Assembly: GCA_028696515.1 (NCBI GenBank)
Contig: JAQVGX010000001.1
Span: forward strand, 1-46,969
DNA: 46,969 nt
Direction of reading: 5' to 3'
Source of the DNA: Candidatus Dojkabacteria bacterium
Lineage (GTDB): Bacteria; Patescibacteriota; Dojkabacteria; JAHIVN01
In this document: positions 2,535-42,951 of the stretch, in pieces
Position numbering within the stretch: position 1 is the stretch's first letter
Layout of the letters: each line of letters begins with the position of its first letter
Program-made: the position numbers and the translations under genes
Notes under the pieces: generated by a model
Told to the model about the DNA's origin: nothing
Database searches by the model: none
Seen by the model: only the letters and a program-made list of their open reading frames with translations

Positions 2535-3287
2535 ATGTCAATTTTACTAACCAGAATCAAAAAATTAATACGCCAGAACTTCTTACCTGAAAACCGTGTT
2601 CAAACTATCAGCGAGATCATAGCTGTTCTAGTCTGGATGGCTTCAACCGTAATATTCTATTATGTCCTGCAGGATATTTTCCCCGAGCAGGAGTTTTGGA
2701 AAGGTGCAAACTTTGCATCCATTATAGCCAGCTTCTTTATAGTAGACGGATTGCTTTTCAGCTTTTTGTTCAGGAATCTTTTCGAACTTAGTGAGCAAAT
2801 TGAAAGTAGAAAAATTGATCAGCGTCTTCTAATGCCAGTAGGATTCAAGAGTTATTCGGGCTTCCGAAAGATGCAGTTCTCGTCCCTGATTCAAATTCCC
2901 GTTTCTATCGTTTTGATCATCTTGACCATTAGATCACCGATTCCCGGTTTTCTATTCTGGACAGGTAGTCTAATCATCGGCTATCTTATCGCTTACCATC
3001 TTTGGTATATTCTTTCACTTCTTTCCTTCTGGATAAAAATAGGTGAGAAATCAACTTTTCTTTTCGAAGAATTCTCCCTCATAAGTATGTTTCCAGCTGC
3101 ACCATTTATAGCTTCAAAGCTGTACTTCTTTTTCTTTCCTTTTCTAACCTTCGCAAGCTTTTCAGCGAAAGGACTTCTTGAGGGAGGGTGGGAGAGAATA
3201 TATATTATGCAGTCAGCAGTACTTCTTGTTTTCGTTTTTACAGCAAAAATCCTAGAATATTTAGGAATTAAGAGATATCGTGCCTAG
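2535..3287 (+). CDS. ABC-2 family transporter permease (second subunit)
   Basis: Polytopic hydrophobic 250-aa protein. It is the third gene of the ATPase-permease-permease arrangement typical of COG4586/4587/3694-type exporters. Confidence 0.6.
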   Translation: MSILLTRIKKLIRQNFLPENRVQTISEIIAVLVWMASTVIFYYVLQDIFPEQEFWKGANFASIIASFFIVDGLLFSFLFRNLFELSEQIESRKIDQRLLMPVGFKSYSGFRKMQFSSLIQIPVSIVLIILTIRSPIPGFLFWTGSLIIGYLIAYHLWYILSLLSFWIKIGEKSTFLFEEFSLISMFPAAPFIASKLYFFFFPFLTFASFSAKGLLEGGWERIYIMQSAVLLVFVFTAKILEYLGIKRYRA

Positions 3288-3336
3288 ATTAAACGGCCAT
3301 TAGCAGAATAGGAAGCTATTTGCCTGGATAAACCAA

Positions 3337-3364
3337 AGAGGTGCTAATTTACATTAACACCTCT
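3337..3364. terminator. Possible hairpin between convergent genes
   Basis: AGAGGTG (3337-3343) pairs with CACCTCT (3358-3364) around a 14-nt loop. It lies between the convergent genes ending at 3287 (+) and 3389 (-). Only a weak T-rich tail follows on the minus strand. Confidence 0.2.
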
Positions 3365-3388
3365 CAGAAATCTAAACTTACTATCTTT

Positions 3389-3610
3389 TTAGTTATCGTG
3401 TCCGTAACCTATCTGTCGTTCATCTCTCGTTTCCTCGTCCCAGTTTCCTTCATCCTCACCATAGGATCCATCTTGGTCTTCATCCTGTGGTCTTTGTTGA
3501 ACACCAATACCCCCGGGTTCACCGACTTCAGCACTTGCTGTAGATGAGTAGAATGTTAACACTCCAGCTACAATCAGTAAAAAAAGAATAGCCTTTACGG
3601 AATTCTTCAT
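3389..3610 (-). CDS. Small secreted acidic protein (73 aa)
   Basis: The internal Met gives MKNSVKAILFLLIVAGVLTFYSSTASA|EV, a clean signal peptide. A D/E/G-rich 45-aa tail follows. The + strand ORF 3341-3547 looks like its hydrophobic shadow. Confidence 0.4.
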   Translation of the reverse strand: MKNSVKAILFLLIVAGVLTFYSSTASAEVGEPGGIGVQQRPQDEDQDGSYGEDEGNWDEETRDERQIGYGHDN

Positions 3611-3799
3611 ATATGAATAAAAGAAAAAATTAAGTACACACTGTAAGATACATACGGAAGAATTGATCACAGGGTACAAAGAAATTTTACATGAAGATTT
3701 TTTCTGATATCTAGAAACAGATCCAGAACTTCTATCTCACCTTTCGACCCTCTACATTTTAGCAGATCTCTTCCCTAGTCAAAAACGACATTATACTAG

Positions 3800-4432
3800 C
3801 TAGTATCCCATTTCAACCCCACTTACCGCCATACCTTCTACTATACCTCTTACTGCACCCAGCTCTCTTATAACTCGTACACCATGCTCTCGAACAATAT
3901 CCAACGCATGATCATCAGGTTCCCTAAGCGCTAACCAAATAGGCACTATTCCATTCTCGCTGCAGCCTATCATATGAATCAAGCTATCATCAATAAGTAC
4001 ATGCGCCCCAATTCGCAAACAAATTTCTAGTTTTGATGAAGTTTCTCCCTCATATTCACCCGTATAGTAAATGTCGCTAATCCCCAAAAACCATCTTTGT
4101 ATCCAGCTAGCTGTCCTTTCTGGATCATCATGACATGCAGTAACTACAACAACCTTGTCTCCTTGAGCTATCAAGCTTTCCACCAACTCAACTGCTCCCG
4201 CTGCAGGTTCAATGTTTATAAAAGAGTCTTGATGATAAAACTCCTTGACAATCGCAATCGCTTGCTCGAGCGTTCCACCCCAAATCTGCCCAAAATTTCT
4301 AACCCCTAATAATCGGCGCCAATCGTCTACTGGATGAACACCTTCCCACCGGAGATAATTTTCATTCACAAATTCTGCTAATGGTTCGAGGAAGGGCCTC
4401 AAAACATCATCTAGATCAAATGCAACTATCAT
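3800..4432 (-). CDS. HAD-superfamily hydrolase (nucleotidase-like)
   Basis: N-terminal nucleophile motif FDLDDVL (DxD). Later VVVVTA and LIDDS motifs, in the order typical of HAD / NT5C-like phosphatases. Confidence 0.6.
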   Translation of the reverse strand: MIVAFDLDDVLRPFLEPLAEFVNENYLRWEGVHPVDDWRRLLGVRNFGQIWGGTLEQAIAIVKEFYHQDSFINIEPAAGAVELVESLIAQGDKVVVVTACHDDPERTASWIQRWFLGISDIYYTGEYEGETSSKLEICLRIGAHVLIDDSLIHMIGCSENGIVPIWLALREPDDHALDIVREHGVRVIRELGAVRGIVEGMAVSGVEMGY

Positions 4433-4512
4433 ATAATTTTGAAGTAAACAAAACGAGGCAGAATGTTTTATGAATTATATAAATAGCACACATTAACGTC
4501 AATCTTGAACTC

Positions 4513-4600
4513 ATAGCTAGTTCAATGTCTGTAGTTGGTTCAATGCCTGTAGTTGGTTCAATGCTTGTAGCTGGTTCAATGCCCCAGCATTGAACCAATG
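4513..4600 (+). repeat. Four tandem 18-bp repeats ending in a hairpin
   Basis: Units are atagctagttcaatgtct, gtagttggttcaatgcct, gtagttggttcaatgctt and gtagctggttcaatgccc. They are followed by cagcattgaaccaatg, so TGGTTCAATGC (4572-4582) pairs with GCATTGAACCA (4587-4597). Confidence 0.85.
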
Positions 4601-4780
4601 CAGCCTAATATAGTATAATCCGTTCATGAACACTTACAGAAACCAAAATCTAATCCTCAAAAGTTCCTACAAAACAGGAGCTAATGTTTCTGTATTCTCC
4701 TTCTTCTTCGCCGGCTGACCGGCGATATTCTCATAAACCATAGTCGAATAATCAATTAGTTGTTGGTTCACTTAGACGAA

Positions 4781-4814
4781 GTAACTGGTTCAATGCCCCT
4801 GCATTGAACCAATG
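4781..4814 (+). repeat. Distal copy of the 34-bp repeat-plus-hairpin unit
   Basis: gtaactggttcaatgcccctgcattgaaccaatg matches 4567-4600 (gtagctggttcaatgccccagcattgaaccaatg) with 2 mismatches. The two copies are in direct orientation, with starts 214 bp apart. Confidence 0.85.
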
Positions 4815-4859
4815 TTACCTAACTATTCAATTAACTATTTAATCAATTACTTACAAAGC

Positions 4860-5975
4860 ATGAACATCAAACCAATAACCAAGGAACAGCTTAAAAAGTA
4901 TCTGTCTGTAAAAGATCTTGTAAATAGAAAAGGCGATTACGCCATAAAGCTATTGTATAACGAAATAAAGGAATATGTAGAAAGTTCTATTCCTGAAAGT
5001 GATGTAAGGGTCTATATCACCAATCCTATTGTTTCTGTAAAAGACAATTACGACCGGCTGCTTTTCAAGAAGGATAATGCAGGCAGATCATCTACATACA
5101 CGCATTACGTAACAAGGGAAAAAATGCTAAGAACTCACACATCTGCTTATATCCCCAGTATACTGGACAAATTAGCACGCGAAAAGAATTGGAACGATAT
5201 CACTATTGTCCTTCCGGGTCTTGCCTACAGAAGGGACGTAACGGATAAAATACATCTCGCAGTTTGTCATCAGCTCGATATCTGGAGAGTGACGAAGGGA
5301 AAGAAAATTACTAAGAAAGATCTGATGAAAACGGTTGACGGGATCATACAAGTCGGAGCTCCCGGCTGGAGAAAGAAAGTTATAGTATCTCGTCATCCAT
5401 ACACAAACGGCGGAGTTGAAATCGATCTAGTCAAGAATGGAAGGGAAATTGAAATCCTAGAATGCGGGCTGATCAAAGAAAAAATTCTGGAGAATTCTGG
5501 ACTAGATCCCAATATGTACTGTGGATGGGCTATGGGAATGGGACTTGATCGGCTGCTTATGACCAGAAAGAATATTCCCGATATCCGATATATTCGATCG
5601 ATAAACCCTAGAATAGCTGAGCAGATGAAAGACCTCGAGCCATATGTCAAAGTTTCAGACCAGCCGCCTATTTACAGAGATATGTCGTACTGTGTCCCCA
5701 ATGATTATGTCGAGGAAGATGTGAATGAGGACATCAGAAACGCCTTGGGGAGTAAAGTTGAGATGCTTGAAAGTATAGAGATCCTTTCGCAGACCACTTA
5801 CAAAAATTTGCCGAGAGAGGCAGCGGAAAGACTCGGGTGTCATAATGATCAGAAGAATATCTTAGTCAGAATTACCCTAAGACATTTGTCGAAGACGTTG
5901 ACCAAAAAAGATGCGAATGCGGTTTATGATCAAATATACAAAGAAGTGAATAAGGGTAGCGGGGGATATATTTAA
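4860..5975 (+). CDS. Monomeric PheRS-like class II aminoacyl-tRNA synthetase (PheS-type core fused to an FDX-ACB-like C-terminal domain)
   Basis: Motif 2-like GLAYRRDVTDKIHLAVCHQLDIW. Motif 3 GWAMGMGLDRLLMTRKNIPDIRYI, which carries the PheS hallmark IPDIR. The C-terminal ~95 aa (DMSYCVP...ILVRITLRHLSKTLTKKDAN) resemble the ferredoxin-fold anticodon-binding domain. I prefer the ATG at 4860 because the track start at 4812 lies inside the repeat hairpin. Confidence 0.7.
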   Translation: MNIKPITKEQLKKYLSVKDLVNRKGDYAIKLLYNEIKEYVESSIPESDVRVYITNPIVSVKDNYDRLLFKKDNAGRSSTYTHYVTREKMLRTHTSAYIPSILDKLAREKNWNDITIVLPGLAYRRDVTDKIHLAVCHQLDIWRVTKGKKITKKDLMKTVDGIIQVGAPGWRKKVIVSRHPYTNGGVEIDLVKNGREIEILECGLIKEKILENSGLDPNMYCGWAMGMGLDRLLMTRKNIPDIRYIRSINPRIAEQMKDLEPYVKVSDQPPIYRDMSYCVPNDYVEEDVNEDIRNALGSKVEMLESIEILSQTTYKNLPREAAERLGCHNDQKNILVRITLRHLSKTLTKKDANAVYDQIYKEVNKGSGGYI

Positions 5976-6522
5976 ATTTGAAATATTTGGCTTATTACCT
6001 TTGCCTTCATTGTTTTGGCCTTGGCGCAAAGTCGCCATCCTTATGCGGGCACGCAACTTTTCACCTTTAATCGTCAAACTTCGACGGCCCCTAGTGAATA
6101 GGCCTCTGAAAGACCTATCGTTGCAACAAAGCCACAAACTTATCTGTGCATACTGGGAAACGATATATATCCATCCGCCTTTATGAATCCAATTCGAACG
6201 GTCTTTTACCCTGACACTAGATCTGTTCCTGATTCAACCTCCATATTGAGATCTATGTACATTGTAAAACGAGAACAGCTAAATTCGTTTTTGGATCCTA
6301 CCTCAGTTGCTGATTATGTGGTATAGATAAACATCAAAGTTATCGTGTTCTGTAACAAGCTTCGAAATATTTCCAAACTAATGCAATTTAGTTATTGCGA
6401 ACTCATAAGTCTTCTTTATTAAGTATATATCCCAACCAATCTTTTCGTCGCACTGTAATTTCAGCACCTAGACCAATGTTATATATTTAGGATATAATCT
6501 AATCTGCTTTGTTTTTTTGATT

Positions 6523-7272
6523 ATGGAAACAGGATTTCATAGTATAAAAGAGTATATGGTAGAGGCGAGTAAATTGCCTGAACTTGTTCTTGAAACTCTC
6601 CAAGGCGTTTATAAGGAAATGGGAAGAAGCCTGCTTACATGTGCTCAACCTCTGGGCTTACTAACTGACAGATTGTATGATGAGTGTCAAAGGCTGAGCT
6701 TGACACCAAATATTCAAGGGCTTCAATCTAGAATTGGTCAAATTGAGGTATTAAAAGATCGAATATCTTTCTTGGTTGAATCTGGACTTCTACTTGAACA
6801 ACTAAGATATCCCCAAGCTGTTATTCGTCATCCTTCATATCAGCCGGTTCAAAGTATATGTCAGGCTTCAGTAAACGAAACTATAGCTCATCTTGCAGCA
6901 GCATGCGCCGTTGCATTTCATCCATTACCACAATTAGATAGAGCTTTTGTCCATTGTGTCCCCAAAGAAATCGTTCACTTATTACAAGTTTCTATGTTAG
7001 AGCCCTTACTGAGTGCTGGACAAAGAGGACCAGTAGAAGTTGCCTTGACAGTCGAAGCACTAGGTCCACAGACTATATCGCTAAAAGTGAAAAGCTCAAC
7101 TCCCGTTATTCAAGATGAAGCTTTGACCAGGGAATTTGATGTCCACCGAATGACGGCCCGGGCAATGGCACAAGCTCATGGACCCGGCTGGGATATCATT
7201 CAAAACGGTCATGTAGATGGAAATGTTTTAACACTTAGGTTTCCGGTAACACATGAGTACACGCTAGGTTAG
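6523..7272 (+). CDS. Hypothetical protein
   Basis: Long open frame with no overlapping competitor. The C-terminal part (ISLKVKSSTPVIQDEA...GPGWDIIQNGHVDGNVLTLRFPV) only vaguely recalls a degenerate GHKL ATPase fold and has no G-boxes. Confidence 0.45.
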   Translation: METGFHSIKEYMVEASKLPELVLETLQGVYKEMGRSLLTCAQPLGLLTDRLYDECQRLSLTPNIQGLQSRIGQIEVLKDRISFLVESGLLLEQLRYPQAVIRHPSYQPVQSICQASVNETIAHLAAACAVAFHPLPQLDRAFVHCVPKEIVHLLQVSMLEPLLSAGQRGPVEVALTVEALGPQTISLKVKSSTPVIQDEALTREFDVHRMTARAMAQAHGPGWDIIQNGHVDGNVLTLRFPVTHEYTLG

Positions 7273-7383
7273 AAAACAGAGTATTCTGATAAGTAAACTT
7301 ACAATCACATTTAAACAAGAGCATATCTTCACAGATCTTCTGAAATCCGATACAATATCTCTAGTTACATTTGAAAAGAGAAT

Positions 7384-7728
7384 ATGGAAGGTGATAAAAA
7401 CACTGAGGCTTCAAAATGGCTTCAAGGTAACAATAACCCCTCGGCTTTAGCCAGCAACAGATTTGGAACAACACAAAAAGCACTTGTTTTTGTTGAAAAG
7501 CTGTACGAACTAGGGGCACAGAAAGTTTTGATTGATAACATATTTAACGAAGAATCCAGAATTGAATCAGAAGGCGGTCCCTATGCTGATTCTATAATTG
7601 TAGAGTTACCTACTGATCCTGATAAAAGAACCAAACTATACGAATTATACAATGCTGAAGCTTTAAATGAAGGATTCGAGGAAACAGAAGACGATGGGGC
7701 AGACTCCTTAACTTTCTGGTGGGACTAA
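7384..7728 (+). CDS. Hypothetical small acidic protein
   Basis: 114-aa ORF with an ATG start. No family recognised. Confidence 0.4.
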   Translation: MEGDKNTEASKWLQGNNNPSALASNRFGTTQKALVFVEKLYELGAQKVLIDNIFNEESRIESEGGPYADSIIVELPTDPDKRTKLYELYNAEALNEGFEETEDDGADSLTFWWD

Positions 7729-15704: not shown

Positions 15705-15890
15705 TAATTGTTCAAACAGATAGCACTAAGATTGATAATAGCAGTACACAAATAGAAATCGGAAATTATCAAACCGGAATTACAGATACCTCTTTTGTTT
15801 CTTTAACTGATGGGAAAATCTATATGTACGACCAAGATAAATACAATCCAAGTCCGGAGACTTCGGGAGATGTCTCATTTGAATCGACTT
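14289..15890 (+). repeat. Three tandem 534-bp (178-aa) coding repeats
   Basis: The unit starts CCTACAATAGAACAACAAAT at 14289 and 14823, and as CCCACCATTGAACAGCAAAT at 15357. The first ~115 nt of units 1 and 2 differ at only a few positions. Confidence 0.9.
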
Positions 15891-18778
15891 TAAAAATAGA
15901 TAACTCTGGAGATACAATATATGCAGAACTTTATAATAGGACCAACTCTACAACTGTGGCAACTCTATCGCATACTGGAGATACTGACTGGGTCTTAGTT
16001 TCGGCAGCTGATGTCGACGGAGATGCTGATTGGGATACAACAAACGATGATGACTACGAAGTTCGGGTTCGTTGCAGTGACGACAACGGAGGTGGGTGCA
16101 GCGGAAATATAGCAAATGCAAAGATTATTCTAGATCAGAGCGACAGCGGTGGTATCACAGATCTGCAACTAGTCCACCAACAGATAAATACTCTCTTTAC
16201 AGACTCTGATACAGGTTACAGCGATTCTGATTATTTAAGCAGATTCAATCCAGAACTTGAAAGTACACAAGTATCATTTGCCGGTTCAGATGTAAGCTAT
16301 TTTTTCGAAACAACCATGAAAACTGCCGGGGGGACTGGTTATGCACGCCTAAATAATGATTCAGCCGGAAGTGCTATCAGCAGCTCTGAGCTAACTACAA
16401 CTTCAGCAACATATGAGAGAGTACGGAGTAGCGAAATAACAAGTGACATGCCATCATATCCTGGTTACAACAGAGCCCAAAATCTTGATACACAAGTTAA
16501 AAACTCAGCAACCAATACTACCTCTGTATCAAACTCCTGGTTGGTAATCGAAGTCAATAACTTACTAACAGCCGGAGCTCCTACAGTTTATGCCGATTTA
16601 TACAACACAACAGATGATGTTCAGATATCCGGATCAGAAGTATCAACTTCATCGACGTCATGGACAAGGGTAAGGAGTTCATCGATAACATTGACTACAG
16701 GGAAAGAATATATTGTTAGAGTCCATACTTCGGATAGCAATAATGTCCCTTTTTATATAGCAAATGCAAAGATTATTCTAGATCAAAGCGCTGTTGATGG
16801 GGTTCTCAATCTTGAGCTTATACATCAATATATAAACACTTTGGCAACAGATAGTGATACTACATACTCATACACTAATTTCTATAACTTGTTCTCTCCA
16901 GCTAATTTAAGTGGGGGATCTTTCACTTATTATTTTGAGGCGACACTAAAAACCTCAGCTGGGACAGGGTACGCAAGGCTCTATAACCAGACAGATAATT
17001 CTATTGTTACAGGATCAGAACTTACTACTACCAGTAGTAACTATGAGAGAGTTCGAAGTGGAGATCTTAGTGCAAATATGCCTGTAGCAGGCAAAACACT
17101 CGATACACAGGTTAAAAATTCAGCTTCAAATACAACCAGTTCTTCAACAAGCTGGATAATAATACAGGCATCTGATTTAAGAATTTTGCCCAATTCTGCC
17201 CCTTCCTTTACCTCTACCCCAGTCGAAAACCCAGCCTCAATATCCACTACACCCACAGATGCAGGTTCAGGAGTCACGTTTGAAGCTACAGCAGAAGATC
17301 CCGAAAGTCATCAATATTTTCTGGCAATATGTAAAACAGATGGTGCCTCAGCTGGTGACGACTCAGCCCCAACTTGTACGGGTGGCGAATGGTGTGTTTC
17401 AAGTGTAGCAAATAGTGGAGAACAATCTACATGCACTTATACAACCCAAGCAGGAGACAGCGAATCAGAAGACTGGTATGCATTTGTATGTGACAAGGTA
17501 GCTGGAGGCGGTTTGTGTTCTTCTTCAAGCCAAGGGAGCGGAGACTCTGGGTCTCCCTTCAAGGTGAATCACACACCACTGTTCAGCTTAGCCAGCGGTA
17601 ACTCTGCTGACCCGGCTGGAACCATCACTTTCACATCAACTGCTTCGGATACTGACACAGACGGGACAGCAGATCAGGTAAAGATGGTTGTATGTACCAA
17701 TACAACAACAGCTGTTGTCTTAGGTTCACCTTCAACCTGTACAGGAGGAACTTTGTACTGTGAATCATCTCTTGGAGCAAGTGATCCTACTTGCAACTAT
17801 AACTTACCAAGTGTCATACAGGACGGGAATACAACATTTAGAGCATTTGTATTTGATAGTCATGACTTAGGATCTGCAAGTAATTATGTAAGCAACACAT
17901 TTACGGTTAATAATGTAGCTCCTTCAGTTTCCGGAGTAATCCTGAATGGAGGAAGTGATATCAGTCTTTCAAACCCGGGAGGGAATACAAACGTATCGGT
18001 AACAGCTACAGTAACTGACAATAATTCCTGTGAAGACGTTGCAGCAGGGAATGTAACAGCAAGCATATATCATGCATTAGCATCGGGGGGATATTCATCC
18101 TGCGACGATAACGGGGAAGATGATACAGATTCTTGCTACGCCTTAGAAGCCTGTACTTTAGATGGAGGTTCATGTACAGGAAGCAGTGATGCAACAGAAA
18201 CATACACTTGCACAGTAGCAGTAGCTTATCACGCTGACCCGACAAGTGGTGCCGGAACGTCAGATTCTCCCTGGTGGGATCATGAGTGGTACGGAACAGT
18301 AGAAGCAGAAGATGACACGGGACTTAGTGATGATATTGAGGTAGGAACACCAGTTGAGATGGAAGATTATATTGCACTAAATGTTACTTCTTCCATTAAT
18401 TACGGAGCATTACTTCCTGACCAGGACTCTGAGGACATATCTGTATATCCGGAAACAACTGTAACTGCCTATGGAAACGTCGGACTAGACAGTTACTTGT
18501 CCGGGGCAAACATGTGTGATGACTGGCCCACCTGCCTTGGAAATACGATCTCAGTAGGATTCCAGGAACATGCATTCTCAACTTTTATCTATGGAGCTGG
18601 TACAGATTTGGCAGGAACACCTACCGAGTACGAGCTCAACTGCACCAAGTCGACTTCAGCTGGCCAAGGCACAAAGATAATTTACTGGGGGATAGGGATA
18701 CCAAATGGCACTCTCTCCGGAGTTTACCAGGGCTCCAATACAATCGATTCAGTTAAAGGTGAAACTTCAGACTGGTAG
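15824..18778 (+). CDS. Giant repeat surface protein, C-terminal segment (frame open and homologous from ~15677)
   Basis: Upstream of the listed Met this frame reads HGTISSARLIIVQTDSTKIDNSSTQIEIGN..., which completes repeat 3 of the upstream ORF. More diverged modules follow (...YERVRS...IANAKIILDQS), then Cys-containing Ig-like C-terminal domains. Confidence 0.75.
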   Translation: MYDQDKYNPSPETSGDVSFESTLKIDNSGDTIYAELYNRTNSTTVATLSHTGDTDWVLVSAADVDGDADWDTTNDDDYEVRVRCSDDNGGGCSGNIANAKIILDQSDSGGITDLQLVHQQINTLFTDSDTGYSDSDYLSRFNPELESTQVSFAGSDVSYFFETTMKTAGGTGYARLNNDSAGSAISSSELTTTSATYERVRSSEITSDMPSYPGYNRAQNLDTQVKNSATNTTSVSNSWLVIEVNNLLTAGAPTVYADLYNTTDDVQISGSEVSTSSTSWTRVRSSSITLTTGKEYIVRVHTSDSNNVPFYIANAKIILDQSAVDGVLNLELIHQYINTLATDSDTTYSYTNFYNLFSPANLSGGSFTYYFEATLKTSAGTGYARLYNQTDNSIVTGSELTTTSSNYERVRSGDLSANMPVAGKTLDTQVKNSASNTTSSSTSWIIIQASDLRILPNSAPSFTSTPVENPASISTTPTDAGSGVTFEATAEDPESHQYFLAICKTDGASAGDDSAPTCTGGEWCVSSVANSGEQSTCTYTTQAGDSESEDWYAFVCDKVAGGGLCSSSSQGSGDSGSPFKVNHTPLFSLASGNSADPAGTITFTSTASDTDTDGTADQVKMVVCTNTTTAVVLGSPSTCTGGTLYCESSLGASDPTCNYNLPSVIQDGNTTFRAFVFDSHDLGSASNYVSNTFTVNNVAPSVSGVILNGGSDISLSNPGGNTNVSVTATVTDNNSCEDVAAGNVTASIYHALASGGYSSCDDNGEDDTDSCYALEACTLDGGSCTGSSDATETYTCTVAVAYHADPTSGAGTSDSPWWDHEWYGTVEAEDDTGLSDDIEVGTPVEMEDYIALNVTSSINYGALLPDQDSEDISVYPETTVTAYGNVGLDSYLSGANMCDDWPTCLGNTISVGFQEHAFSTFIYGAGTDLAGTPTEYELNCTKSTSAGQGTKIIYWGIGIPNGTLSGVYQGSNTIDSVKGETSDW

Positions 18779-23931: not shown

Positions 23932-25875
23932 ATGCACTCACTGGAAATAAAAAAGAAATACATCGAATTCTTTAGAAAGAAAGGTCACAAACAACTGGCC
24001 AATGTATCACTCTTACCTGACAACGATCCGACAGCACTATTTATAAACTCTGGAGTTCATCCGATAGTTCCAAACATACTTCAGGGATCACATCCCCTAG
24101 GAAAAAGACTGTGCAGTATCCAGCGCTGCATACGAACAACTGATATCGAAGAAACAGGAGATAATAGACACCATACATTATTTGAGATGTTAGGGAATTG
24201 GTCGATCGGAGATTATTTCAAAAATGAATCTTTAAATTGGTCGATGAAATTCTTTGTGGAAGTCTTGAAACTAGATCCCAAAAGAATATATGCTTCTGTA
24301 TTCAAAGGGGAAAAGGGAGTTCCTCGTGATGAACAATCAATTGCTGTTTGGAAAGAAATTTTTAAGAAATACGGCATAAGTGCAGAAGTTTATGATGAGA
24401 CAAAAAAAGACAATTCCAATGCAAGAATTTTCCCATTGGGCAAAGAAGACAACTTCTGGGGACCTGCTGGGCAAACCGGCCCCTGCGGTCCGAATAGCGA
24501 ATTCTTCTACTACTTTATGAAAGATTCTCCGGATTTTTCAAGATCTCGTCCGGGATTTAGGGATGGGGATGAATACGTAGAACTCTGGAATAATGTTTTT
24601 ATGGAGTACAACAAAGACAGCTCGGGGGCATTAACTCCTCTTAAACAGAAGAATGTTGATACTGGGGCTGGCTTCGAAAGAATCTGTCTAGTTATACAGA
24701 ACAGAGAGAAAGACGGATCGATGGATCCAAAGCATACAGTATATGATACAGATCTATTTGACTCTCCGCTTGCTTATATACGCAGCTTGATCGAAGATGA
24801 AAGCAAGAAATCAAATTATGAAGCCAACAGGGAAGACACTATAGAATTTGATCCTACTCTCACAGATATTGAAGACGTTGAGAGCGCTATCAGATCAATC
24901 AGGATAACACTAGACCACCTACGGGCCAGTACTTTTCTGATCGCTGACGGAGTCGAACCCTCAAACAAGGACCACGGCTACATACTCAGAAGACTGATAC
25001 GAAGAGCGATAAGACATGCAAAGCTTCTGAGGATAAATCAGAACTTTACAAAAGATTTAGCTAAGCTTTATATAGAAAAGTACAAGCCTCAATATCCCCA
25101 TCTGGCTACCAATTCTCAAAAGATAACCGATATCTTAGAAAAGGAGGAGATAAACTTCGAACAAACTATTCAAAGAGGAATTCGGGAAGTTGAGAAGCTC
25201 AAAGGTAAAGGAGGGGAAGTATCCGGCAAAGATTTATTCTTTATCTACGAAACATATGGTTATCCTCTTGAAATGGCTCTCGATGGGCTGCAGATCAGAG
25301 AGGAAAAAGAAAGAGAAAAATATATAAAAGAGTTTAATGTTGCAAAGAGCTTTCATCAAAAAGAATCACGAAAGGGCGCAGTGAAATTTGCAGGAGGTTT
25401 AGCAGATCATACCGAGATCTCAAAAAGATATCATACAGTCACCCACATTCTACTCAAAGCCCTGCAGATTAGTTTAGGTCAACATGTTCATCAGCGCGGG
25501 AGTAACATCACCGAAGAACGCCTCCGTTTTGATTTCTCTCACCCGGAAAAATTAACACAAGAACAAATAGGCAAAGTTGAAGAGATCGTAAATAAACAAA
25601 TAGAGTCCGGGCTTGAAATGGAAAGGAAGGTTATGCCAAAAGAAGAAGCTCTCAAAACAGGGGCAGAATGTGAGTTCCCTGAAAGATATCCTGCTACCGT
25701 TTCGGTCTACGTTCTGAAAGACCCTAAAACAGGCAAGGTATTTTCACAAGAATTCTGCGGAGGGCCGCATGTCGACAATACGAAAGAACTATCCGAATCA
25801 GGAAAATTTAAGATCATAAAAGAGGAAAGCAGTTCAAGCGGGGTTAGAAGAATCAGGGCCATTTTGACAAAATAA
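23932..25875 (+). CDS. alaS: Alanine--tRNA ligase (short form, 647 aa, no C-Ala/DHHA1 domain)
   Basis: N-terminal KKYIEFFRKKGH...DPTALFINSG...RCIRTTDIEETG..HHTLFEMLGNWS, motif 3 DTGAGFERI. Editing-domain zinc ligands HTVTH and CGGPH. The protein ends shortly after the editing domain. Confidence 0.9.
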   Translation: MHSLEIKKKYIEFFRKKGHKQLANVSLLPDNDPTALFINSGVHPIVPNILQGSHPLGKRLCSIQRCIRTTDIEETGDNRHHTLFEMLGNWSIGDYFKNESLNWSMKFFVEVLKLDPKRIYASVFKGEKGVPRDEQSIAVWKEIFKKYGISAEVYDETKKDNSNARIFPLGKEDNFWGPAGQTGPCGPNSEFFYYFMKDSPDFSRSRPGFRDGDEYVELWNNVFMEYNKDSSGALTPLKQKNVDTGAGFERICLVIQNREKDGSMDPKHTVYDTDLFDSPLAYIRSLIEDESKKSNYEANREDTIEFDPTLTDIEDVESAIRSIRITLDHLRASTFLIADGVEPSNKDHGYILRRLIRRAIRHAKLLRINQNFTKDLAKLYIEKYKPQYPHLATNSQKITDILEKEEINFEQTIQRGIREVEKLKGKGGEVSGKDLFFIYETYGYPLEMALDGLQIREEKEREKYIKEFNVAKSFHQKESRKGAVKFAGGLADHTEISKRYHTVTHILLKALQISLGQHVHQRGSNITEERLRFDFSHPEKLTQEQIGKVEEIVNKQIESGLEMERKVMPKEEALKTGAECEFPERYPATVSVYVLKDPKTGKVFSQEFCGGPHVDNTKELSESGKFKIIKEESSSSGVRRIRAILTK

Positions 25876-26598: not shown

Positions 26599-26636
26599 GT
26601 AGTCGAAAAAGCCTGTTGGATTTTGTTTTGTATACT

Positions 26637-29600
26637 ATGTTCAAATTGACAAAAAATACAACCATTCAACTCACGATAAAATTATTTATCCTATCCTCGA
26701 TACTAATCAGCTTTTCGTTCTCCCCGAGACCTGTGAATGCAGAACTGTACGAATGGGATACATCATTTAGTTCCGATGGCGTTGCAATCAATGCAAGTAC
26801 CGCCGGAGGAGATGGACATGAACAGATAAATGACATAGAAATTCAATCAGACGGAAAGTATATAGCCACTGGCTGGAGTGTTGGGATTCTAGATGCGTCT
26901 TCCAAAACTTATGCCGATTTAGCAGTTTTGAGATTCAACTCAAATGGTACACTTGACACTTCATTTGGAGGAACAGGATACGTAACAAGTAGGATTGGTG
27001 ATAATGAATATTCTATGAGTGCTGGGAACGCAATTAAGATACAAAATGATGGTAAATATATCGTAGTCGGAGCCAAATTCAGCGAAGATAGTATATTTGG
27101 TCATATGAATGTTGTCTTATGGAGATTCAATTCAGATGGAACACTTGATACTTCATTCAATTCTACAGGTTATAATATTTTCACAGATATAGAGGGTGTA
27201 GGTTTGGACTTAGAAATTGAGAACGATGGTCAGCCCGATATGTCATATATCGTTTCGGGAACTTCAGATGGATCAACTGCCATTTGGAAATTTGACACCA
27301 ACGGTGACATAGAACCAGGTTTTGGAAGTCTAGGTTCCCAAAAGGTCACAAATGGAGAAGGAAATTTCTCTTCCGACCTAGATTTTTTTGGATACTCAAT
27401 AACGTATTTGGGGGATCTTGATATCGACGGAGTAGATGACCTTGCTGTTGGAGAAAAAGAAGACAACGGGACAGGATCAGTACAAATAGTATTTATGAAC
27501 AGTGATGGAACTATCAAAAGCTCTTCAAAGATTGGTGAAGGTGAAGGAGGTTTTGGAGGATCATTAGATTCCAACGACGACTTTGGATTTTCTATCTCAG
27601 AAATAGGCGATCTTGATAACGATGGAGTCGTTGATATTGCAGTCGGTGCTCAGTATGACGATGACGAGAATGCGGATAGCGGTGCAATATGGGTAATATT
27701 TCTAAACTCGGATGGAACAGTAAAGGCAGAACAAAAGATTAGTGATACTGAGGGGAACTTTACTGGACAGCTTGATACCGCCGATTACTTTGGCTCTTCT
27801 ATCACAAATCTTGGAGATCTTGATGCAGATGGAGTACAAGATCTAGCAGTTGGAACTATGCGAGACGATGATGGAGGTACCAATCGTGGAGCTGTATGGA
27901 TTCTTTTCATGAACACCAATGGAACAGTAAAAGCTGAGCAGAAAATTAGCGATACCCAGGGTGGATTTCTAGGTACTATCTCAAACAATGATTCCTTTGG
28001 AAGAGTAGTAGAAAACATCGGCGATCTGGACGGAGATCTAATAACCGATATCGCTGTCGGAGCTCCATACGATGCAGGGAACAGTTCCGCCGAAGGGTCA
28101 ACTTGGATTCTATTTCTTAACACAGACGGTACAGTTAAGTCATATCAAGAGATTAATGATCTTCAAGGAGGATTTACTGGAGGACTAACAAGCGGAGATT
28201 TCTTTGGCATTTCTATTACTGATCTAGGAGATCTGGACACAGATGGAGTTCAAGATATAGCTGTCGGAGGCATTGGAGAAGATGGTAAGGTGGGAGGAGT
28301 TTGGATACTTTTTCTAAACTCAAATGGGACAGTTAAATCACATCAACTAATCAGCAACACAGCTGGAAGTTTCACCGGCGGTCTCGAACAATACGACTAC
28401 TTCGGAATATCACTTGAGAATATAGACGACTTTGATGGAGATGGTGTTCAGGATATCGCTATAGGGGCTACAGGTGGCGATTTTAATTCTGAAAGTGTGC
28501 CAAGCTGGAATGCCCGACGCGAAATACTGTGGATAATTTATCTAAATACTAATGGTACAGTAAAGGGCTTTGAGAAACTTCGAAATCCGGAAGGGCTTTT
28601 TCATGGATTTCTTGACGGACAGGACTACTTTGGCTCGGCAGTAACGAGTATAGGAGACATTGACTTAGATGGGTACGAAGATTTGGCTGTTGGTGCTCCT
28701 GGAGATGACGGTGGAGGGACAAATCAGGGAGCAGTTTGGATTCTTCATCTAAACGAGAATGCACAAGTCATAACTCACCAAAAAATCAGTGAAATAGAGG
28801 GAGGTTTTACGGGTGTACTGGATACTCTTGACTACTTCGGAACATCTGTTGCAAACATAGGAGATCTAGACAACGACGGTGTAATCGACTTGGCCGTCGG
28901 AGCCTATGGGGACGATGATGGCGGAAGCGGCCGAGGAGCAGTCTGGATTCTTTTTATGAATAGTGACAGCACAGTCAAATCAATACAGAAAATCAGTAAC
29001 ACAGCTGGCGGTTTTGGTGGAACCTTAGATAACGACGACTGGTTCGGATCCTCCGTTGCCCCATTGGGAGATCTTGATGGAGATGGTGTTGAGGATATTG
29101 CCGTTGGAGCAGAAAAAGATGACGATGACCACTCAGATGCAGGCGCAGTATGGATACTATTCCTTAATACAGACGGTACTGTAAAGAGTTACCAAAAAAT
29201 GAGCGACTCTACCGGCGGATTGATAATTGATCTTACAAGCACCAACTACTTTGGGGCATCAATAGCCAATATTGGTGATCTTGACGATGACGGAATTGTT
29301 GATATAGCAGTCGGAGCATACAATAGGACGGCTACTTCAAAAGGATCGCTTTCCATAATATTCCTAAATACCAATGGTACTGTAAAATCAGATTATGAAA
29401 TTACCTCAGGAACATTCCCGGTTACCATAGATAATTCAGACTGGTTCGGATACTCAGTCACCGATATTGGAGATGTGGATTCAGACGGAGTTCAGGATTT
29501 AGCTATCGGCATGCCAAGAGATGATGATGGAGGAACCGATCGTGGAGCTACTTGGATCACATTTATGAATACCAACGGAAGTGTAAAAACTGTGCAAAAA

Positions 29601-32600
29601 CTAAGTGATACTCAAGGACAGTTCGGCGCAACTTATGAAGATGGTGACTATTTTGGATCCGCTCTAGGAAGCTTGGCAGATCTTGATGGTAACGGGGAAA
29701 GAGAACTCGTGGTAGGTGTTGAACGTGAGAGTAATAATTACACCTATGGCGACAGAGGAGCTATCTATACTATTTCTATTGATGCCGATGGAACAGTTAA
29801 CAGAACTTCTTCTGAAGTTGGAGGCTACGGATACGCTATTTTCACTAGCGGAACATATGGAAATGATCTTTTAATTCAAAGTGATGGGAAATACGTTATA
29901 TGTGGAGTTGACTATTCAGGATCCTACGCTCGAGACTTTGCCCTTTGGCGTATAAACAGCGATGGAAGCTTGGACACAACGTTTAATGGGGCTGGATATG
30001 TTACACACACTCATGCTGCAGGAGGTGGACTAGAGGAATGCTCCACCTTACAAGTTCAATCTGATGGCAAATATATAGCAGCAGGGTATGCAAGCAGCCC
30101 TGATAACCATAGTACAAACTACGAAATGACTCTTTGGCGCTATAACACCAACGGATCTTTAGATACCACCTTTGACAGTGATGGATATGCCGTATATTCA
30201 AATGCTGCAGGCGGATACGGACATGATTGGGGGAAGAGCTTAGAAATTGAAAACGATGGCCAGCCTACTATGAAATATGTAGTCGGAGGTTACAGCTGGA
30301 ATCCTGACCTTGATCCTGATATAGCTGTCTGGAGGTTAAATGAAAACGGTTCTCTGGACACAACTTTTCATAATCAAGGATATATAACTCTGGGAAATTC
30401 GGCTGGCGGAAATGATTCAGATGTTATTACTGATTTGGAGATTCAATCTGATGGGAAGTATATAATGGGCGGTTACTCTACTGGAACTGACGGCACATTC
30501 GATGCTGCAATTTGGAGATTGCAGGAACAAGGGGCAACAGGAGGAACAGGGATAGTCGTTTTCGAGGATAAAGAGCCTTATACAAGTTTATCTAAAACCA
30601 AAAGTTTATCGTCTTCTAATGTATTGGGGGATAATCAAGAGAACTTATCCGATAACTCTGAAGAGATAAAACACAAGGTCCAGCCATTGAAAAATAAGGT
30701 TAATTCTACTATTTCAAACATAATTTATACAACAAATACTTTAAACAAAACTGAGGCCCTCTCCTCAAAGATTTTATTAATTATAGGAATAATATCAATA
30801 AGTGGAACTGCAATAATTTGGATAAAATTTAAAAGATTATCAACTCCAAAATATCGAGATTTTAATCCTTTCGGTTTATACAAAAAAGAAACAGTCAACT
30901 ATAAACATTTACTTAGGAAACTTGCCTTTTCAGCTAATTCAAATCGAAAGCTCTTTATCGTACTCATTACACTTATCTTTACGATTGTAAACCTTTCGGT
31001 CCTACCTTTCGCAAAGAACACAAATGCTGCCTGGGATACAACATTCGATTCAGACGGATTCCTCTGGTATGATGAAGGTTACGGGTGGGATATTGGATAT
31101 GATTTGGAAATACTTCCTAGCGGAAAAATCTTGGTAGCAGGTTTTGTTACAAATTCTAGCGGGAATTGGGATATGGCTTTATGGCAATATAATAGTGATG
31201 GAACTCTTGACACGGCCAATTTCAACACCCCAAATGGATATGTTACCCATGACAGTGCAGCCGGTGGGGGTGATAGAGATAGTAGTTATTCATTGGCAGT
31301 TCAAACAGATGGGAAGATACTAGTAACAGGTTATAGTCTAAATTCAGCCTCAGACGGAGACCTTGTGATATGGAGATACAACAGTGACGGAACGATGGAT
31401 GATACTTTCGGTGACGGCAGTTGCAATAACGGGGTTGGTGTAGGATCCGATATGGGATGTGTGGTTCACCACAATGCAGCTGGTGGCGACGGGTATGATT
31501 CAGCTACTACAGTACTAGTCAATGATGCTGGTAAGATAATAGCTGTTGGATCAAGTGAAAACTCTCCAAGTACCTACGATTATAGTCTCGTAGTTTGGCA
31601 GTACAATAGTGATGGAACTATGGATGATACCTTTGGTGACGGCAGTTGCAATAATGGAGTTGGTGTTGGATCAGATATGGGATGTGTAGTTTTTCCAGGG
31701 CTAACAGCAGATGCAGATAACTGGAGCGACGGAGCTGTATTACAATCAGATGGAAAAATTGTAGCTGTCGGTTCTGCAGACAATGATACAAACTATTATG
31801 ATATGGCAATATGGAGATTCAATACTGACGGGACATTGGATGATACTTTCGGAGATGGGACTTGTAGTAATGGAGCAGGTATTAGTGGTGATATGGGTTG
31901 CGCTATTCACCATAATGCTGCAGGTGGCAATGATGACGACTTTGGAATTGCTGTAGCGATTGATGGTAATAATAATATTGTTGCAGCTGGATACAGTTAC
32001 AGCTCAACAAATGGTACAGATCTAGCTGTTTGGAGGTACAATTCTGACGGTGAACTGGATACCTCATTCAGCTCAGATGGATATACCTCTCATAATAGTG
32101 CAGCTGGAGGATCCTGGTGGGATTCTGGAGAAGATCTTGTTATCCAGAGCGACAACAAAATTGTTATCTCCGGGCAAAGTGATGACTCTGACGGTAATAC
32201 CGATATGACTATCTGGAGATATCAGACCGATGGAACACTAGACCCTTACTTCGGAGACGGAACATGCGTAAATGGAGTCAATTCAGGACACGGCTGTGTC
32301 AACCACAATGGTGATGAGGCTATTGCTGGCTTTAATGATGACTATGGTGGAGGAATAGATATAGTCGCTGATGGTACTTTTATCGTAAGTGGACAGGCAC
32401 AAGAAACTAACGTACAAAACAGAGATATGGCTATGTGGAAATTCATCCAAAGAAGCTACCAGATACTAAATCTAGATTCGTCTCTCAATGCAACCGACAG
32501 TTCAGGAAATAATGTTGAGGACGGATCAGCATATGGGTTAGAGGGGTCTTATACCATAAACATCACTGATACTTCGGGTAACTATATCGGCGAAGTATTG

Positions 32601-39523: not shown

Positions 39524-42500
39524 ATGCTTGAACCTCAAATCGATCAAACAAACTATAGTCCTGAAAGAAAGCTCAAAATCGAAAATTTGGCAATATTTGT
39601 AGCACTGAGCGTCATCATTATTATTCTTTTTTTGTTACTCCGTGAGCCGGCAACCAATTTTGTTGAATCGATTGTAGAAAACGAACCATCGAAAGAAGAT
39701 CAACCTGAATCAGCAGTTAGCAGTTCAAAAACCATTGCTGAATACATAGGTGAGCTAAAAGAAGGAAATGCTATTACACTCACACCTACTATAAATGTAC
39801 TTGGAAATGTCATCAACGAAGAGGTAACAATTAACGACCTACCCGACACCGGTGAAGATGACCCTTGGGTAAATGTTATTGGCGACACGATGACAGGAGA
39901 TCTGACGATAACTGGGGGAGCTAACCTAATTCTTACTGATTCCGAAGACCTTGTTTTCAGCAACGTTTCACTCAAATCCTCACTTTCCAGACAAAACAGC
40001 GGAGCTTTCTTTGTAGGAACATTTGATGAATATGTCAATAGTGACAGCACCAACGTACAAGATGTGATGGATGATTTGGATGAAGCCATTGGCAGCCTTC
40101 AAAATAGAGTCGTTTATTGGAACGAAGCTTATAGCTGGGGAGACCACAGTATTGTTGGATATTTGACAGAAGAATCCGAAGAAACAGATCCTGTTTGGAC
40201 AGAAGCTGAGTCAAGCTACTTCAACATATCTGAAAACGAGTTAATTACTGGGTGGCCAAACTTTGCCGGGGGTCAGAGCGGTATAAGAGCACCTTTTAGA
40301 GTTGACAGTACATTTCTTGTGACAAATCTTAACGCTGATCTTCTCGACGGCTATCATGCCTCTGACTTTATGGGAGAAGGCGTAGATCTTTGGGTTGACG
40401 AGACAGGAGATACTATGTCTGGAATCTTAAATATGGGAGGTTACAGGATCGAAAATATAGCGGTACCAAACTCAAATGATGACGCAATTGATTTCGGCTC
40501 TGCTGAATCAAACTATATAAACGATGGAGCAGGAGAAATCAACGCTGTTGGAGATTTTAACTTTGCCGCAACAACTAATATCACAAATCTAAGCGCTGAT
40601 TATCTAGACAGCCAGGACAGCAGTTACTATCGCAATGTATCAAACATTAACGCCGGAACCTTAGGAAGTGCTTACTTCAGTGCATACTCAGATCTAAATG
40701 CCGAAGGATACGTGCCCGCTTCATCTACTACGATATGGACCAATACTAACGACGGGGCTGGCAGCGGACTTGACGCTGATCTGCTTGACGCTCAGACAGG
40801 CACCTACTATACAAACGCTTCCAATATAAACTCGGGCACATTGGGCACTGCTTATTATAGTGCATATGCTGATCTTACGGCCGAAAACTACCTGAATAAT
40901 GATGCCGGGACAGATCTACTGACACAAACCCAGTTAGATGGAAGATACATCAATAACACCGGAGATACTATGACTACCGCCGGATTGCCATTTTCCGGTA
41001 TTACAACTGATATTTATACTCCGAGCGGTGAAGCGCTTACTCTAAGTGCTCCTGGCGCACAAGATATAAATTTATACACAGGTTCAGGAGTAATAGGCAT
41101 AGGAACGACAACCTCTCTCGTTGAAGTTTCAAATGTATCGACTGCCTATTCTGATCATAAAGATCTCCTTATCAGATCAACCGGAACCAACCAGGCAACA
41201 TATTTTCGTGTTGCCCCAAATGGTACCCCGCCCGATTCAATTATATGGTCAACTGTGCAGGTCTTTGCTACAGACTGGTCAGCTGACCAGTCAAATGTTG
41301 AAGCCGTTGAGATGAGATTTAATCGGGATGCAGACGGCGCTCCAGGAAATCAATCAATTTTTCAAATTAACACCTATGCAGGAGGAACAGGAACCCTGCA
41401 TCCCCTTGCAATAACAGTAGACGATGAAGCATATAAAGGAATCTTCATCGATACCGGAGCAAATGTTGGTATTGGTTCAACTTCCCCTGCGCAAGAACTT
41501 GACGTAGAAGGAGACATCCAGCTCGATGCAAACGAGTCTGCAACTACAAATGGTTTATGTCATTCTGGAGCCAACTCGGATACAACTTTCACAGATCGCA
41601 ATATAGTAGCATGTTCATCAACCCCTGGTGATATAGCTGAATGGTATGACACAAAGGATGCCGAAGCCGGAGACATTGTATATACAACAGGTGAAAAAAT
41701 TACCTATATATCACCGGCTGTCAACGCCGAAACCGGAGAAGTTCTAAATCAGAATGAAAAGTTAACTGCAAGTATACTGGCAAAAAGCAACCGTCCTTAC
41801 CAAGCAAATATCTTGGGAGTAGTATCAACCTCTCCTTACGAATCTTTCGGCAAGGCTATCAATAAATATTCTTCAAACCCCAATCCTATAGCACTTACAG
41901 GACGCGTCCCAGTGAAAGTTGTCACTTACAACGGAGCTATAAAGCCGGGTGACCCTATCACAGCAAGCAGTATAGCTGGGGTAGGTATGAAAAGCACTAA
42001 ACCAGGGCATATCATTGGAATAGCATTAGACCATTATGACAGTATCAACCCTTATAAAGTTGGTAAAATACTGGTTTCCATCAACCTCAGCTGGTATGAG
42101 CCTGAGAGTTATCTCAAAAAGGTAAACGAAACAATTCAGGCATATGATATGTTGAGTACGCAGGGACAAATTGATATATTACCGGATCTCAATATAACCG
42201 ACACTTTAACAGCCAAAAATGCTTCAATCTTGTCGATTCAAGTGAAAGATATAACTGTTCAGAATAATCTTGAAGTTTCAGGAGTACTAACATCGAGGTC
42301 GATAAAAGCAGATACAATAGAATCTGCATTCTCCAAAAGTATCATTATCAAGCTGTCAGACCACTTGGGTAATACAGCATTCGAAGTACAAAACGATCAG
42401 AGCGAAAAAGTATTCAGCATTGATAGTAACGGAAAGATTTATATACTATCAGATTCTTCCAATACTTCTGTAGGATCAACAGTTTTATCTCCTGGAAATG

Positions 42501-42911: not shown

Positions 42912-42951
42912 AATTAATAAATAAGTGAAGAAAACACCTTTTACTGCCTCT

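Follow-up and report, generated by a model that had tools for sequence, protein, structure and literature searches.

SrmL, a PheS-related ligase of a Patescibacteria genome, and the phenylalanine-codon leader upstream of its gene

The srmL gene and its product

The present analysis concerns srmL, a gene for a one-piece, mitochondria-style relative of phenylalanyl-tRNA synthetase (PheRS), in a stretch of 46,969 nucleotides from a Candidatus Dojkabacteria bacterium. This whole stretch, referred to here as the window, is the entire contig C22 of a Patescibacteria-type assembly of 1.64 Mb, which comprises 128 contigs and is 86% complete. The srmL coding sequence occupies 4860..5975 on the forward strand and encodes 371 aa plus the stop codon. 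The open frame itself spans 4812-5975 (+), and the ATG at 4860 has been taken as the start because, in the family alignment, Met1 of 95% of 120 homologues aligns there. This agrees with the coordinates and the length of about 370 aa given in an earlier, sequence-only reading of the window, whose quoted strings (GLAYRRDVTDKIHLAVCHQLD, GWAMGMGLDRLLMTRKNIPDIRYI, DMSYCVPNDY and NILVRITLRHLSKTLTKKDANAVYDQI) are all found in the translation.

Two domains were recognised in the protein. A class II PheS-type catalytic core (tRNA-synt_2d; 4959..5624, +) covers residues 34-255, as seen both in Pfam (E 6.3e-32, 111 bits) and in alignments, and is followed by a ferredoxin-fold anticodon-binding (FDX-ACB) domain (Pfam PF03147; 5655..5954, +) at residues 266-365 (E 5.6e-9, 36.8 bits, with a gathering score of 31.1). 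The sequence-only reading had made its proposal hinge on this second domain, whose call holds. In alignments, the FDX-ACB blocks R273-D274-x-S276-Y277 and R337-I-T-L-R341...R-T-L are common to SrmL and PheRS. The N-terminal coiled coil of bacterial PheS is absent, as had been claimed, since the match to the bacterial PheS model is limited to model positions 143-322. Likewise, no pheT remnant adjoins srmL: a tblastn search of 3200-7500 with the genome's own PheT and with E. coli PheT returned chance matches only (E >= 0.2). Aromatic as opposed to aliphatic residues in the FDX-ACB sheet were also considered as a marker of changed anticodon specificity and rejected, given that E. coli PheT is aliphatic there too.

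The joining of a PheS core to an FDX-ACB domain in a single chain is the architecture of human mitochondrial PheRS (FARS2, or PheRS-M; PDB 3CMQ and 3TUP), as the sequence-only reading had recognised and as the Pfam, sequence and fold matches bear out. The nearest solved relatives by sequence are human mitochondrial PheRS chains (E about 1e-23), with bacterial PheS ranking behind. An AlphaFold2 model of SrmL (pLDDT 85.3, pTM 0.82) has as its top structural match 3CMQ, the closed form of the human enzyme, over both domains (E 8e-27, TM 0.74, rmsd 3.6 A), and reaches a TM of 0.77 with 5MGV. The GWA start of motif 3, also noticed earlier, and the Thr at the V261/T235 position are common to SrmL and the mitochondrial enzyme. 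With regard to bacterial (alpha-beta)2 PheRS, SrmL shares the class II motifs 2 and 3, and its FDX-ACB domain is homologous to the C-terminus of PheT, whereas the coiled coil, the beta subunit and the editing domain are all missing. To our knowledge, the SrmL build is the smallest aminoacyl-tRNA synthetase (aaRS) architecture.

Family membership and distribution

The window protein matches NCBIfam NF051887, named 'PheS-related mystery ligase SrmL', with 420.2 bits against a cut-off of 300, over model positions 2-349 of 349. It fails the cut-offs of both TIGR00469, the mitochondrial PheRS equivalog (147.4 bits against 258.35, true members scoring 264-359 bits), and TIGR00468, the bacterial PheS model (94 bits against 237.45, over the partial range given above). 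The earlier description of the protein as mitochondrial PheRS-like thus stands for architecture and fold, and does not extend to membership of the mitochondrial equivalog. By its profile score the window protein is assigned to the SrmL equivalog, and nothing disqualifies its membership. The family has already been catalogued by NCBI and has no characterised member, the window gene being a new addition to it, and no paper naming the family was found in a literature search for 'SrmL'.

A word-indexed search returned 839 homologous proteins at E <= 1e-5, the best 120 of which are 371-417 aa long, share 55-62% identity with the window protein, contain both domains and, where a source is named, come from Saccharibacteria, Saccharimonadales or Dojkabacteria. 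When 185,579 species genomes were scanned by pattern, 46 srmL loci were identified, almost all of them in Patescibacteria; the few others lie on short contigs, probably through mis-binning. Of 301 genomes sampled evenly from the phylum, only the window's genome passed the NF051887 cut-off, and the occurrence of srmL in the phylum is therefore sporadic. An exhaustive HMMER search extended the family considerably, with 2581 clusters at E <= 1e-3 and 117 at E <= 1e-30 (clusters at 50% identity), and full-length relatives reaching down to about 30% identity. Among the proteins that NCBI names SrmL is the Arthrobacter RefSeq protein WP_326956993.1, which is 36% identical to the window protein and has in common with it, as do other named SrmLs, the signature H179-P-Y-T-x-x-G ... 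E198-x-x-E201-x-G. SrmL is accordingly a large family across phyla whose function is officially a "mystery".

An extra copy beside the canonical synthetase

The gene srmL is an extra paralogue beside a housekeeping (alpha-beta)2 PheRS. A whole-genome search, which the sequence-only reading had suggested, found a canonical pheS (252 bits, above cut-off) adjoining pheT (767 bits) on contig C77 of the same assembly. The composition of both C22 and C77 fits the bin, and C22 also carries housekeeping genes, such as those for AdoHcy hydrolase, alanyl-tRNA synthetase (AlaRS) and a PfkB kinase. Furthermore, pheT is present in G301, the genome of the closest homologue (a Dojkabacteria metagenome-assembled genome, 62% identity), and, in full or in part, in 24 of 25 further homologue-carrying genomes, in 21 of them above cut-off. 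Given the canonical genes in this assembly and in other carriers, the earlier proposal that SrmL serves a reduced genome as its sole, minimised PheRS is not sustained, and its alternative, a paralogue with another role, pointed in the right direction as far as the paralogue is concerned. Unlike mitochondrial PheRS, SrmL is not the only PheRS of its compartment.

The genomic surroundings offer no constant companion for the enzyme. No cluster of open reading frames (ORFs) recurs across 50 loci as a possible operon partner, and no neighbour family was conserved in more than three loci in a Pfam analysis of 129 neighbours of 42 loci. There is no dedicated tRNA in the window, and the genome encodes a set of 49 ordinary tRNAs with one tRNA-Phe(GAA). 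Assorted tRNAs are found near some srmL copies, none of them being a recurrent neighbour in the 50 loci.

Active site and phylogeny

The active site was compared in an alignment of 120 close homologues, 11 single-chain Patescibacteria PheRSs, E. coli PheS, the genome's own PheS and human mitochondrial fragments, to which 69 full-length representatives were added in a second round. Pocket roles were assigned by aligning to residues described in the literature (PMC3275996). The SrmL alignment keeps R124 of motif 2, H132, H137, D/E140, Thr182, E187, E198, G203 and, in motif 3, G222-x-A224...R231. The window protein retains R124, H137, Q138 and D140 of motif 2, E198, and G222-W-A224...R231 of motif 3, while the ATP-binding arginines of motifs 2 and 3, R124 and R231, are invariant in the homologue alignments. 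Thr182 and Ala224 align to E. coli T251 and A294, which set the end of the phenyl pocket in PheRS (PMC3275996). The clade-wide retention of the catalytic residues together with T182 and A224 argues that SrmL is enzymatically active, forming adenylates with an aromatic substrate of about the size of Phe.

The pocket has nonetheless been rebuilt, and in the window protein it comprises H179, Y181, T182, G185, E196, E201 and C136. Both pairwise and multiple alignments place His179/Tyr181 at the aromatic pair that is F232/F234 in the human and F258/F260 in the T. thermophilus enzyme. The Phe that follows Ala224 has become Leu or Met, a change conserved in the SrmL clade. The window protein belongs to a Patescibacteria subgroup of the family with W223, with Val, Ile, Leu or Cys at position 136, which is Pro in most SrmLs, and with Asp or Glu in place of the invariant Trp of "W-L-E" (E196 in the window protein). 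In 81% of this subgroup Gln138 has also become Met, whereas the window protein retains Gln. A clade signature could be derived in this analysis (His179, Tyr181, Thr182, Gly185, Glu198, Glu201, Gly203 and Ala224), which is complete in the window protein, invariant in alignments of 120 and 32 close homologues, and, in the tree, common to 53 of the 64 rows that make up the SrmL-type clade.

In a maximum-likelihood tree, the SrmL-type proteins form one clade (SH-aLRT 100) that branches from within a grade of single-chain proteins with a canonical pocket. Scores on NF051887 follow the same division, with 375-474 bits for SrmL-type proteins and 220-258 bits for single-chain PheRSs; two distant SrmL-type proteins score 274 and 299 bits.

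A phenylalanine-codon leader upstream of srmL

Upstream of srmL lies a short leader ORF, which the sequence-only reading did not see. This ORF (4626..4718, +; MNTYRNQNLILKSSYKTGANVSVFSFFFAG) has 30 codons and ends in VFSFFFAG, with four TTC Phe codons at 4695-4709, in five consecutive positions, among its last seven sense codons. It is preceded by a sigma-70-like promoter at 4590..4619 (+), with TTGAAC, an 18-nt spacer and TATAAT (10 of 12 matches), whose -10 element ends 6 nt before the leader ATG. At its other end the leader runs into a terminator-like hairpin with a tail (4708..4735, +), identified by folding and by a 12-locus alignment, in which the stem-loop uCGCCGG-CUGA-CCGGCGa (4708-4725) is followed by an imperfect, U-rich 3' tail, AUAUUCUCAU. 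The 5' arm of this GC-rich, 7-bp hairpin begins in the last Phe codon, and the leader stop codon is found in the loop. An Rfam scan of 4300-6700 returned no match at E <= 1, hence no T-box or riboswitch.

The leader recurs at other srmL loci. Small upstream ORFs containing 3 or more Phe within a stretch of 6 residues were present at 24 of 43 homologous loci, compared with 6 for the reverse strand and with 2.6 and 3.0 for random windows and shuffles, respectively, an enrichment of about 8-fold in which Phe alone stands out among the 20 amino acids. The majority of these leaders end in ...FFFFGFFAA*, with the last two codons forming the 5' arm of a hairpin that is followed by a U-tract, which is clear at the homologous loci. 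The hairpin arms are CGCCGG/CCGGCG in the window and in a Dojkabacteria relative, and UGCUGC/GCAGCA in the others; across the 12 aligned loci, 93% of cells take part in pairing, and both sides have changed in 3 of the 7 pairs. Moreover, at 8 of 14 homologous loci 6-9 nt separate the end of the -10 hexamer from the leader ATG, a conserved short spacing from which it follows that the leader is probably translated from a leaderless, or nearly leaderless, mRNA.

A second class of leaders, found at other loci and ending in ...KNFFM.SSLGGLAGFTK*, has a separate strong terminator. Within the ORF, these class-2 leaders contain a 6-nt complement of the terminator 5' arm, which co-varies with it (GGGGGU:GCCCCC and GGAGGC:GCCUCC) and was equalled by only 1-4 of 300 shuffles. 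On the strength of these pairings, class-2 leaders are predicted to be classical attenuators, in which ribosome stalling at the Phe codons would let transcription read through ('stall = ON'). The compressed leader of the window presumably has the same polarity, because of its homology and because the 5' arm of its hairpin would be sterically masked. In 5-6 Saccharibacteria loci, including L023, L030, L033, L039 and L040, the pyrimidine-rich Phe-codon tract also pairs with the purine-rich ribosome-binding region of srmL (-15 to -16 kcal/mol; 0-3 of 200 shuffles as good), which suggests a second, translational lock that would be opened by the stalled ribosome. The same pairing is not significant in the window or in its closest relative.

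Within the SrmL family, the Phe-codon leader is a trait of the Patescibacteria subgroup, the Arthrobacter member being devoid of one. The Arthrobacter gene is divergently paired with a MerR/TipAS-type regulator (L071/L072, 2273-2713, -), with the palindrome CTTGACGTTACGTCAAG in the intergenic region, which hints that SrmL in Actinomycetota may be under antibiotic- or xenobiotic-responsive control.

Possible function of SrmL

Our tentative proposal, to which we give somewhat less than an even chance, is that srmL encodes an accessory single-chain class II ligase for tRNA-Phe, induced by a shortage of Phe-tRNA and most probably making Phe-tRNA-Phe, with tRNA-Phe as the presumed acceptor and Phe as the presumed amino acid. 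Transcription would start at the promoter immediately before the short leader peptide, whose terminal run of Phe codons abuts the terminator-like hairpin. Were Phe-tRNA-Phe to become scarce, a ribosome waiting on the Phe codons would cover the 5' arm of the hairpin and, with the hairpin masked, transcription would run on into srmL. The enzyme would then acylate tRNA-Phe, most probably with Phe, through a remodelled active site that might, for instance, be insensitive to whatever starves or inhibits the main PheRS, and the decoding of Phe codons would be restored. Regulation through Phe codons would tie SrmL to the supply of acylated tRNA-Phe and, in combination with the kept catalytic residues, the unchanged pocket end and the intact anticodon-binding domain, it makes an inducible auxiliary tRNA-Phe synthetase the most economical reading.

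Related arrangements have been described in other bacteria. The pheST operon of E. coli has the pheM leader, in which a Phe-rich leader peptide is followed by a terminator. The leader and terminator-like hairpin of srmL are comparable, but the arrangement in the window differs from that attenuator in being compressed, so that the hairpin and the end of the leader overlap. In Streptomyces coelicolor, the gene for the auxiliary, indolmycin-resistant tryptophanyl-tRNA synthetase TrpRS1 is controlled by a Trp-codon attenuator (Vecchione & Sello 2010, J Bacteriol 192:3565, as cited in PMC4787780). As with srmL, this is a second synthetase gene beside the housekeeping one, with a leader rich in cognate codons. 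However, TrpRS1 has been proven to be a TrpRS and is inhibited by a known compound, indolmycin's target being the housekeeping type, whereas SrmL is a putative synthetase with Phe as its presumed substrate. Should SrmL be an inhibitor-insensitive or starvation-adapted PheRS, PheRS would join the synthetases with inducible auxiliary copies.

Several findings weigh against this proposal. Where the mitochondrial enzyme has Phe232/Phe234, SrmL has His/Tyr, the invariant His179 standing in place of the pocket Phe (T. thermophilus F258, human F232). The Gly of the pocket floor has given way to an invariant Glu201 and a Ser to Gly185, Glu stands in place of the Trp of 'W-L-E', and the adenine-stacking Phe of motif 2 is lost, with Cys136 in the window protein. 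The resulting Phe pocket appears to match no known PheRS. The SrmL clade, which is separate from mitochondrial PheRS, is set off by a stem 1.41 substitutions per site long, a length typical of a change of function. As for the leader, the U-tract in the window is weak and fails a terminator scanner, although the conserved, co-varying 7-bp hairpin is present, and folding found no antiterminator pairing in the window's leader. A purely steric model does not fix the sign of the response and could give the opposite polarity. In addition, the distant SrmL loci that were searched for a Phe leader (Arthrobacter and the P0129 locus) lack one. The pocket and the stem seem to fit a change of function followed by strong conservation, a pattern which is not decisive because in eukaryotic cytosolic PheRS both pocket Phe residues are replaced, by Asn/Tyr, and Phe is still bound (PMC3275996).

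The foremost alternative, which we regard as rather unlikely although it deserves serious consideration, is that SrmL has been neofunctionalised to ligate something other than Phe, such as a polar or substituted aromatic amino acid or another metabolite, to tRNA-Phe or to another FDX-ACB-bound RNA, in which case the Phe leader would couple SrmL activity, or feed it back, to the state of tRNA-Phe. The rebuilt pocket (H179, E201, G185, stacking Phe lost) is conserved in a clade whose members go down to about 30% identity, the long stem has 100% support, and SrmL coexists with PheRS, as judged from pheT in the other carriers; the NCBI curators themselves settled on the name 'mystery ligase'. SepRS and PylRS, which belong to the same aaRS subclass, show that this scaffold adopts new substrates (AARS Online, PMC11580382). 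However, a Phe-specific leader is the regulation expected of an enzyme that supplies Phe-tRNA, T182 and A224 at the phenyl-ring end of the pocket are unchanged, and the Asn/Tyr pocket of the cytosolic enzyme shows that Phe can be bound without the Phe pair (PMC3275996). Moreover, neither a dedicated tRNA, whether among the 49 of the genome or as a recurrent neighbour in the 50 loci, nor recurring biosynthetic partner genes were found. The use of another substrate would amount to a new aaRS specificity.

It is conceivable, if unlikely, that SrmL acts as a rescue synthetase, loading tRNA-Phe with a more polar aromatic that fits the His179/Glu201 pocket when Phe-tRNA-Phe runs out. If true, this would mean that the amino acid at Phe codons is exchanged in a genetically programmed and regulated way, in host-dependent Patescibacteria as well as in other bacteria.

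A role outside tRNA aminoacylation, with another acceptor or a regulatory function, is decidedly unlikely. Such roles are known for many truncated or diverged aaRS paralogues (PMC4787780, introduction), examples being EpmA/PoxA (acting on EF-P), GluQRS (on a tRNA base), HisZ and AsnA, and the active site of SrmL is altered, with the adenine-stacking Phe lost. Nevertheless, its anticodon-binding domain is complete and well conserved, a closed two-domain arrangement like that of mitochondrial PheRS is confidently predicted by the model, there is no conserved partner gene, and a Phe-codon leader would be hard to explain if the role were unrelated to tRNA-Phe.

It is very improbable that srmL is what remains of a mobile element, either decaying or inactive. 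Its distribution is sporadic, and IS1595 transposase and replication-relaxation genes adjoin some srmL copies in other genomes, but its reading frame is uninterrupted, an alignment of 32 homologues (55-62% identity) has about 100 invariant columns and the regulatory leader is conserved, which already constitutes strong evidence of purifying selection. Lastly, the sole-PheRS proposal can practically be discarded: the architecture would fit and enzymes of this kind do exist, being the only PheRS in 17 near-complete Patescibacteria genomes, but it is refuted by the pheST of the same assembly, together with the pheT of other carriers, and by the position of the window protein in the SrmL clade, apart from those sole-copy enzymes.

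Returning to the proposed accessory tRNA-Phe ligase, the Phe-codon leader represents the first concrete experimental handle on the function of SrmL. The covariation of the hairpin, the promoter spacing of the putatively leaderless mRNA, the predicted class-2 antiterminator and the clade-wide pocket signature with its long stem are new here.

Single-chain PheRS as the apparent sole PheRS of other Patescibacteria

In the sample of the phylum, 19 genomes from at least 9 families have a PheS+FDX-ACB protein of about 380 aa as their only PheS-like gene. Of these, 17 (near-complete, from at least 8 families) were tested, and neither a full-length pheT nor an editing domain was detected in any of them; PheT-like sequence is confined there to the FDX-ACB of the fused gene and to an ORF of 108-184 aa matching the tRNA-binding (B2) domain of PheT. 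This tRNA_bind ORF adjoins the fused synthetase gene in 13 of the 17 genomes; at locus L011, for instance, it lies at 959-1351 and ends 6 nt before the synthetase (pair L011:959-2496; loci L010-L020). The sole-copy proteins score 247-264 bits on TIGR00469, near or above the mitochondrial cut-off, and 220-258 bits on NF051887, below the SrmL cut-off. They resemble SrmL in architecture, length and phylum, and SrmL is an offshoot of their grade in the tree. In contrast to SrmL, they have the canonical pocket (F-P-Y/F-T-x-P-S, W, G), replace pheST and, in most of the genomes tested, adjoin a stand-alone tRNA_bind gene of about 130 aa.

A genuine single-chain, mitochondria-type PheRS thus appears to be the only PheRS of several Patescibacteria lineages. 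The mitochondrial enzyme has been called the only known monomeric class II PheRS (PMC3275996), a view of the form as unique to organelles which these lineages contradict, and the literature searched yielded no description of a single-chain PheRS from bacteria. The sole-copy proteins make up at least 6862 clusters at 90% identity, with named sources in Doudnabacteria or the "Patescibacteria group", and NCBI labels them "hypothetical protein". They therefore bear on genome annotation, and also on the origin of the mitochondrial enzyme.

Other features of the locus and the window

The region upstream of srmL contains further repeats. A repeat search identified three tandem 18-nt half-site repeats (TAGTTGGTTCAATGC-like) at 4514..4583 (+), which run into the first of two copies of a 42-nt direct repeat with the palindrome CTGGTTCAATGCCCCAGCATTGAACCAATG. 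This first copy (4567..4608, +) overlaps the -35 of the promoter-like site, whereas the second (4781..4822, +), which folds as a stable hairpin, lies between the terminator-like hairpin of the leader and the srmL start, so that the copies flank the promoter -10, the leader and the hairpin. The perfect palindrome in the repeat, CTGGTTCAATGCCCC[A/T]GCATTGAACCAATG, occurs twice in the 1.64-Mb assembly, both times upstream of srmL, at 4573-4600 and 4787-4814, and is absent at the closest homologous locus (L021). The repeat with its palindrome could be an operator for some regulator, or else the scar of a module insertion.

With regard to the genes around srmL, AlaRS-core-like, TrhO-like, GNAT, IS1595 and relaxase genes are occasional neighbours at other loci. 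A TrhO-like gene (UPF0176_N + Rhodanese + Rhodanese_C), for a putative tRNA U34 hydroxylase, lies 1-2 genes from srmL at three Patescibacteria loci and in Arthrobacter (L022:9168-10061; L071:5420-6295), possibly by coincidence. In the window, the divergent upstream gene (3800-4432, -) encodes a 210-aa protein, putatively of the HAD superfamily and similar to the 5'-nucleotidase NT5C (Pfam E 3e-4, below the gathering score), which has no link to srmL in other loci. The 540-nt stretch after srmL (5976-6516) is devoid of a convincing ORF and of any Rfam match at E <= 1, and a promoter-like site at 6469-6498 precedes a gene at 6517-7272 (251 aa, no family match).

Further downstream, the AlaRS gene (23932-25875, +) encodes only 647 aa, with tRNA-synt_2c and tRNA_SAD, and appears to lack the C-terminal C-Ala domain. 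The window also contains very large ORFs on the forward strand at 26616-35435, 15824-18778, 39524-42682 and 42925-46545, of 2939, 984, 1052 and 1206 aa, respectively. The 984- and 1052-aa ORFs have no Pfam match at E <= 1e-5, and the 1206-aa ORF contains Kelch beta-propeller repeats.

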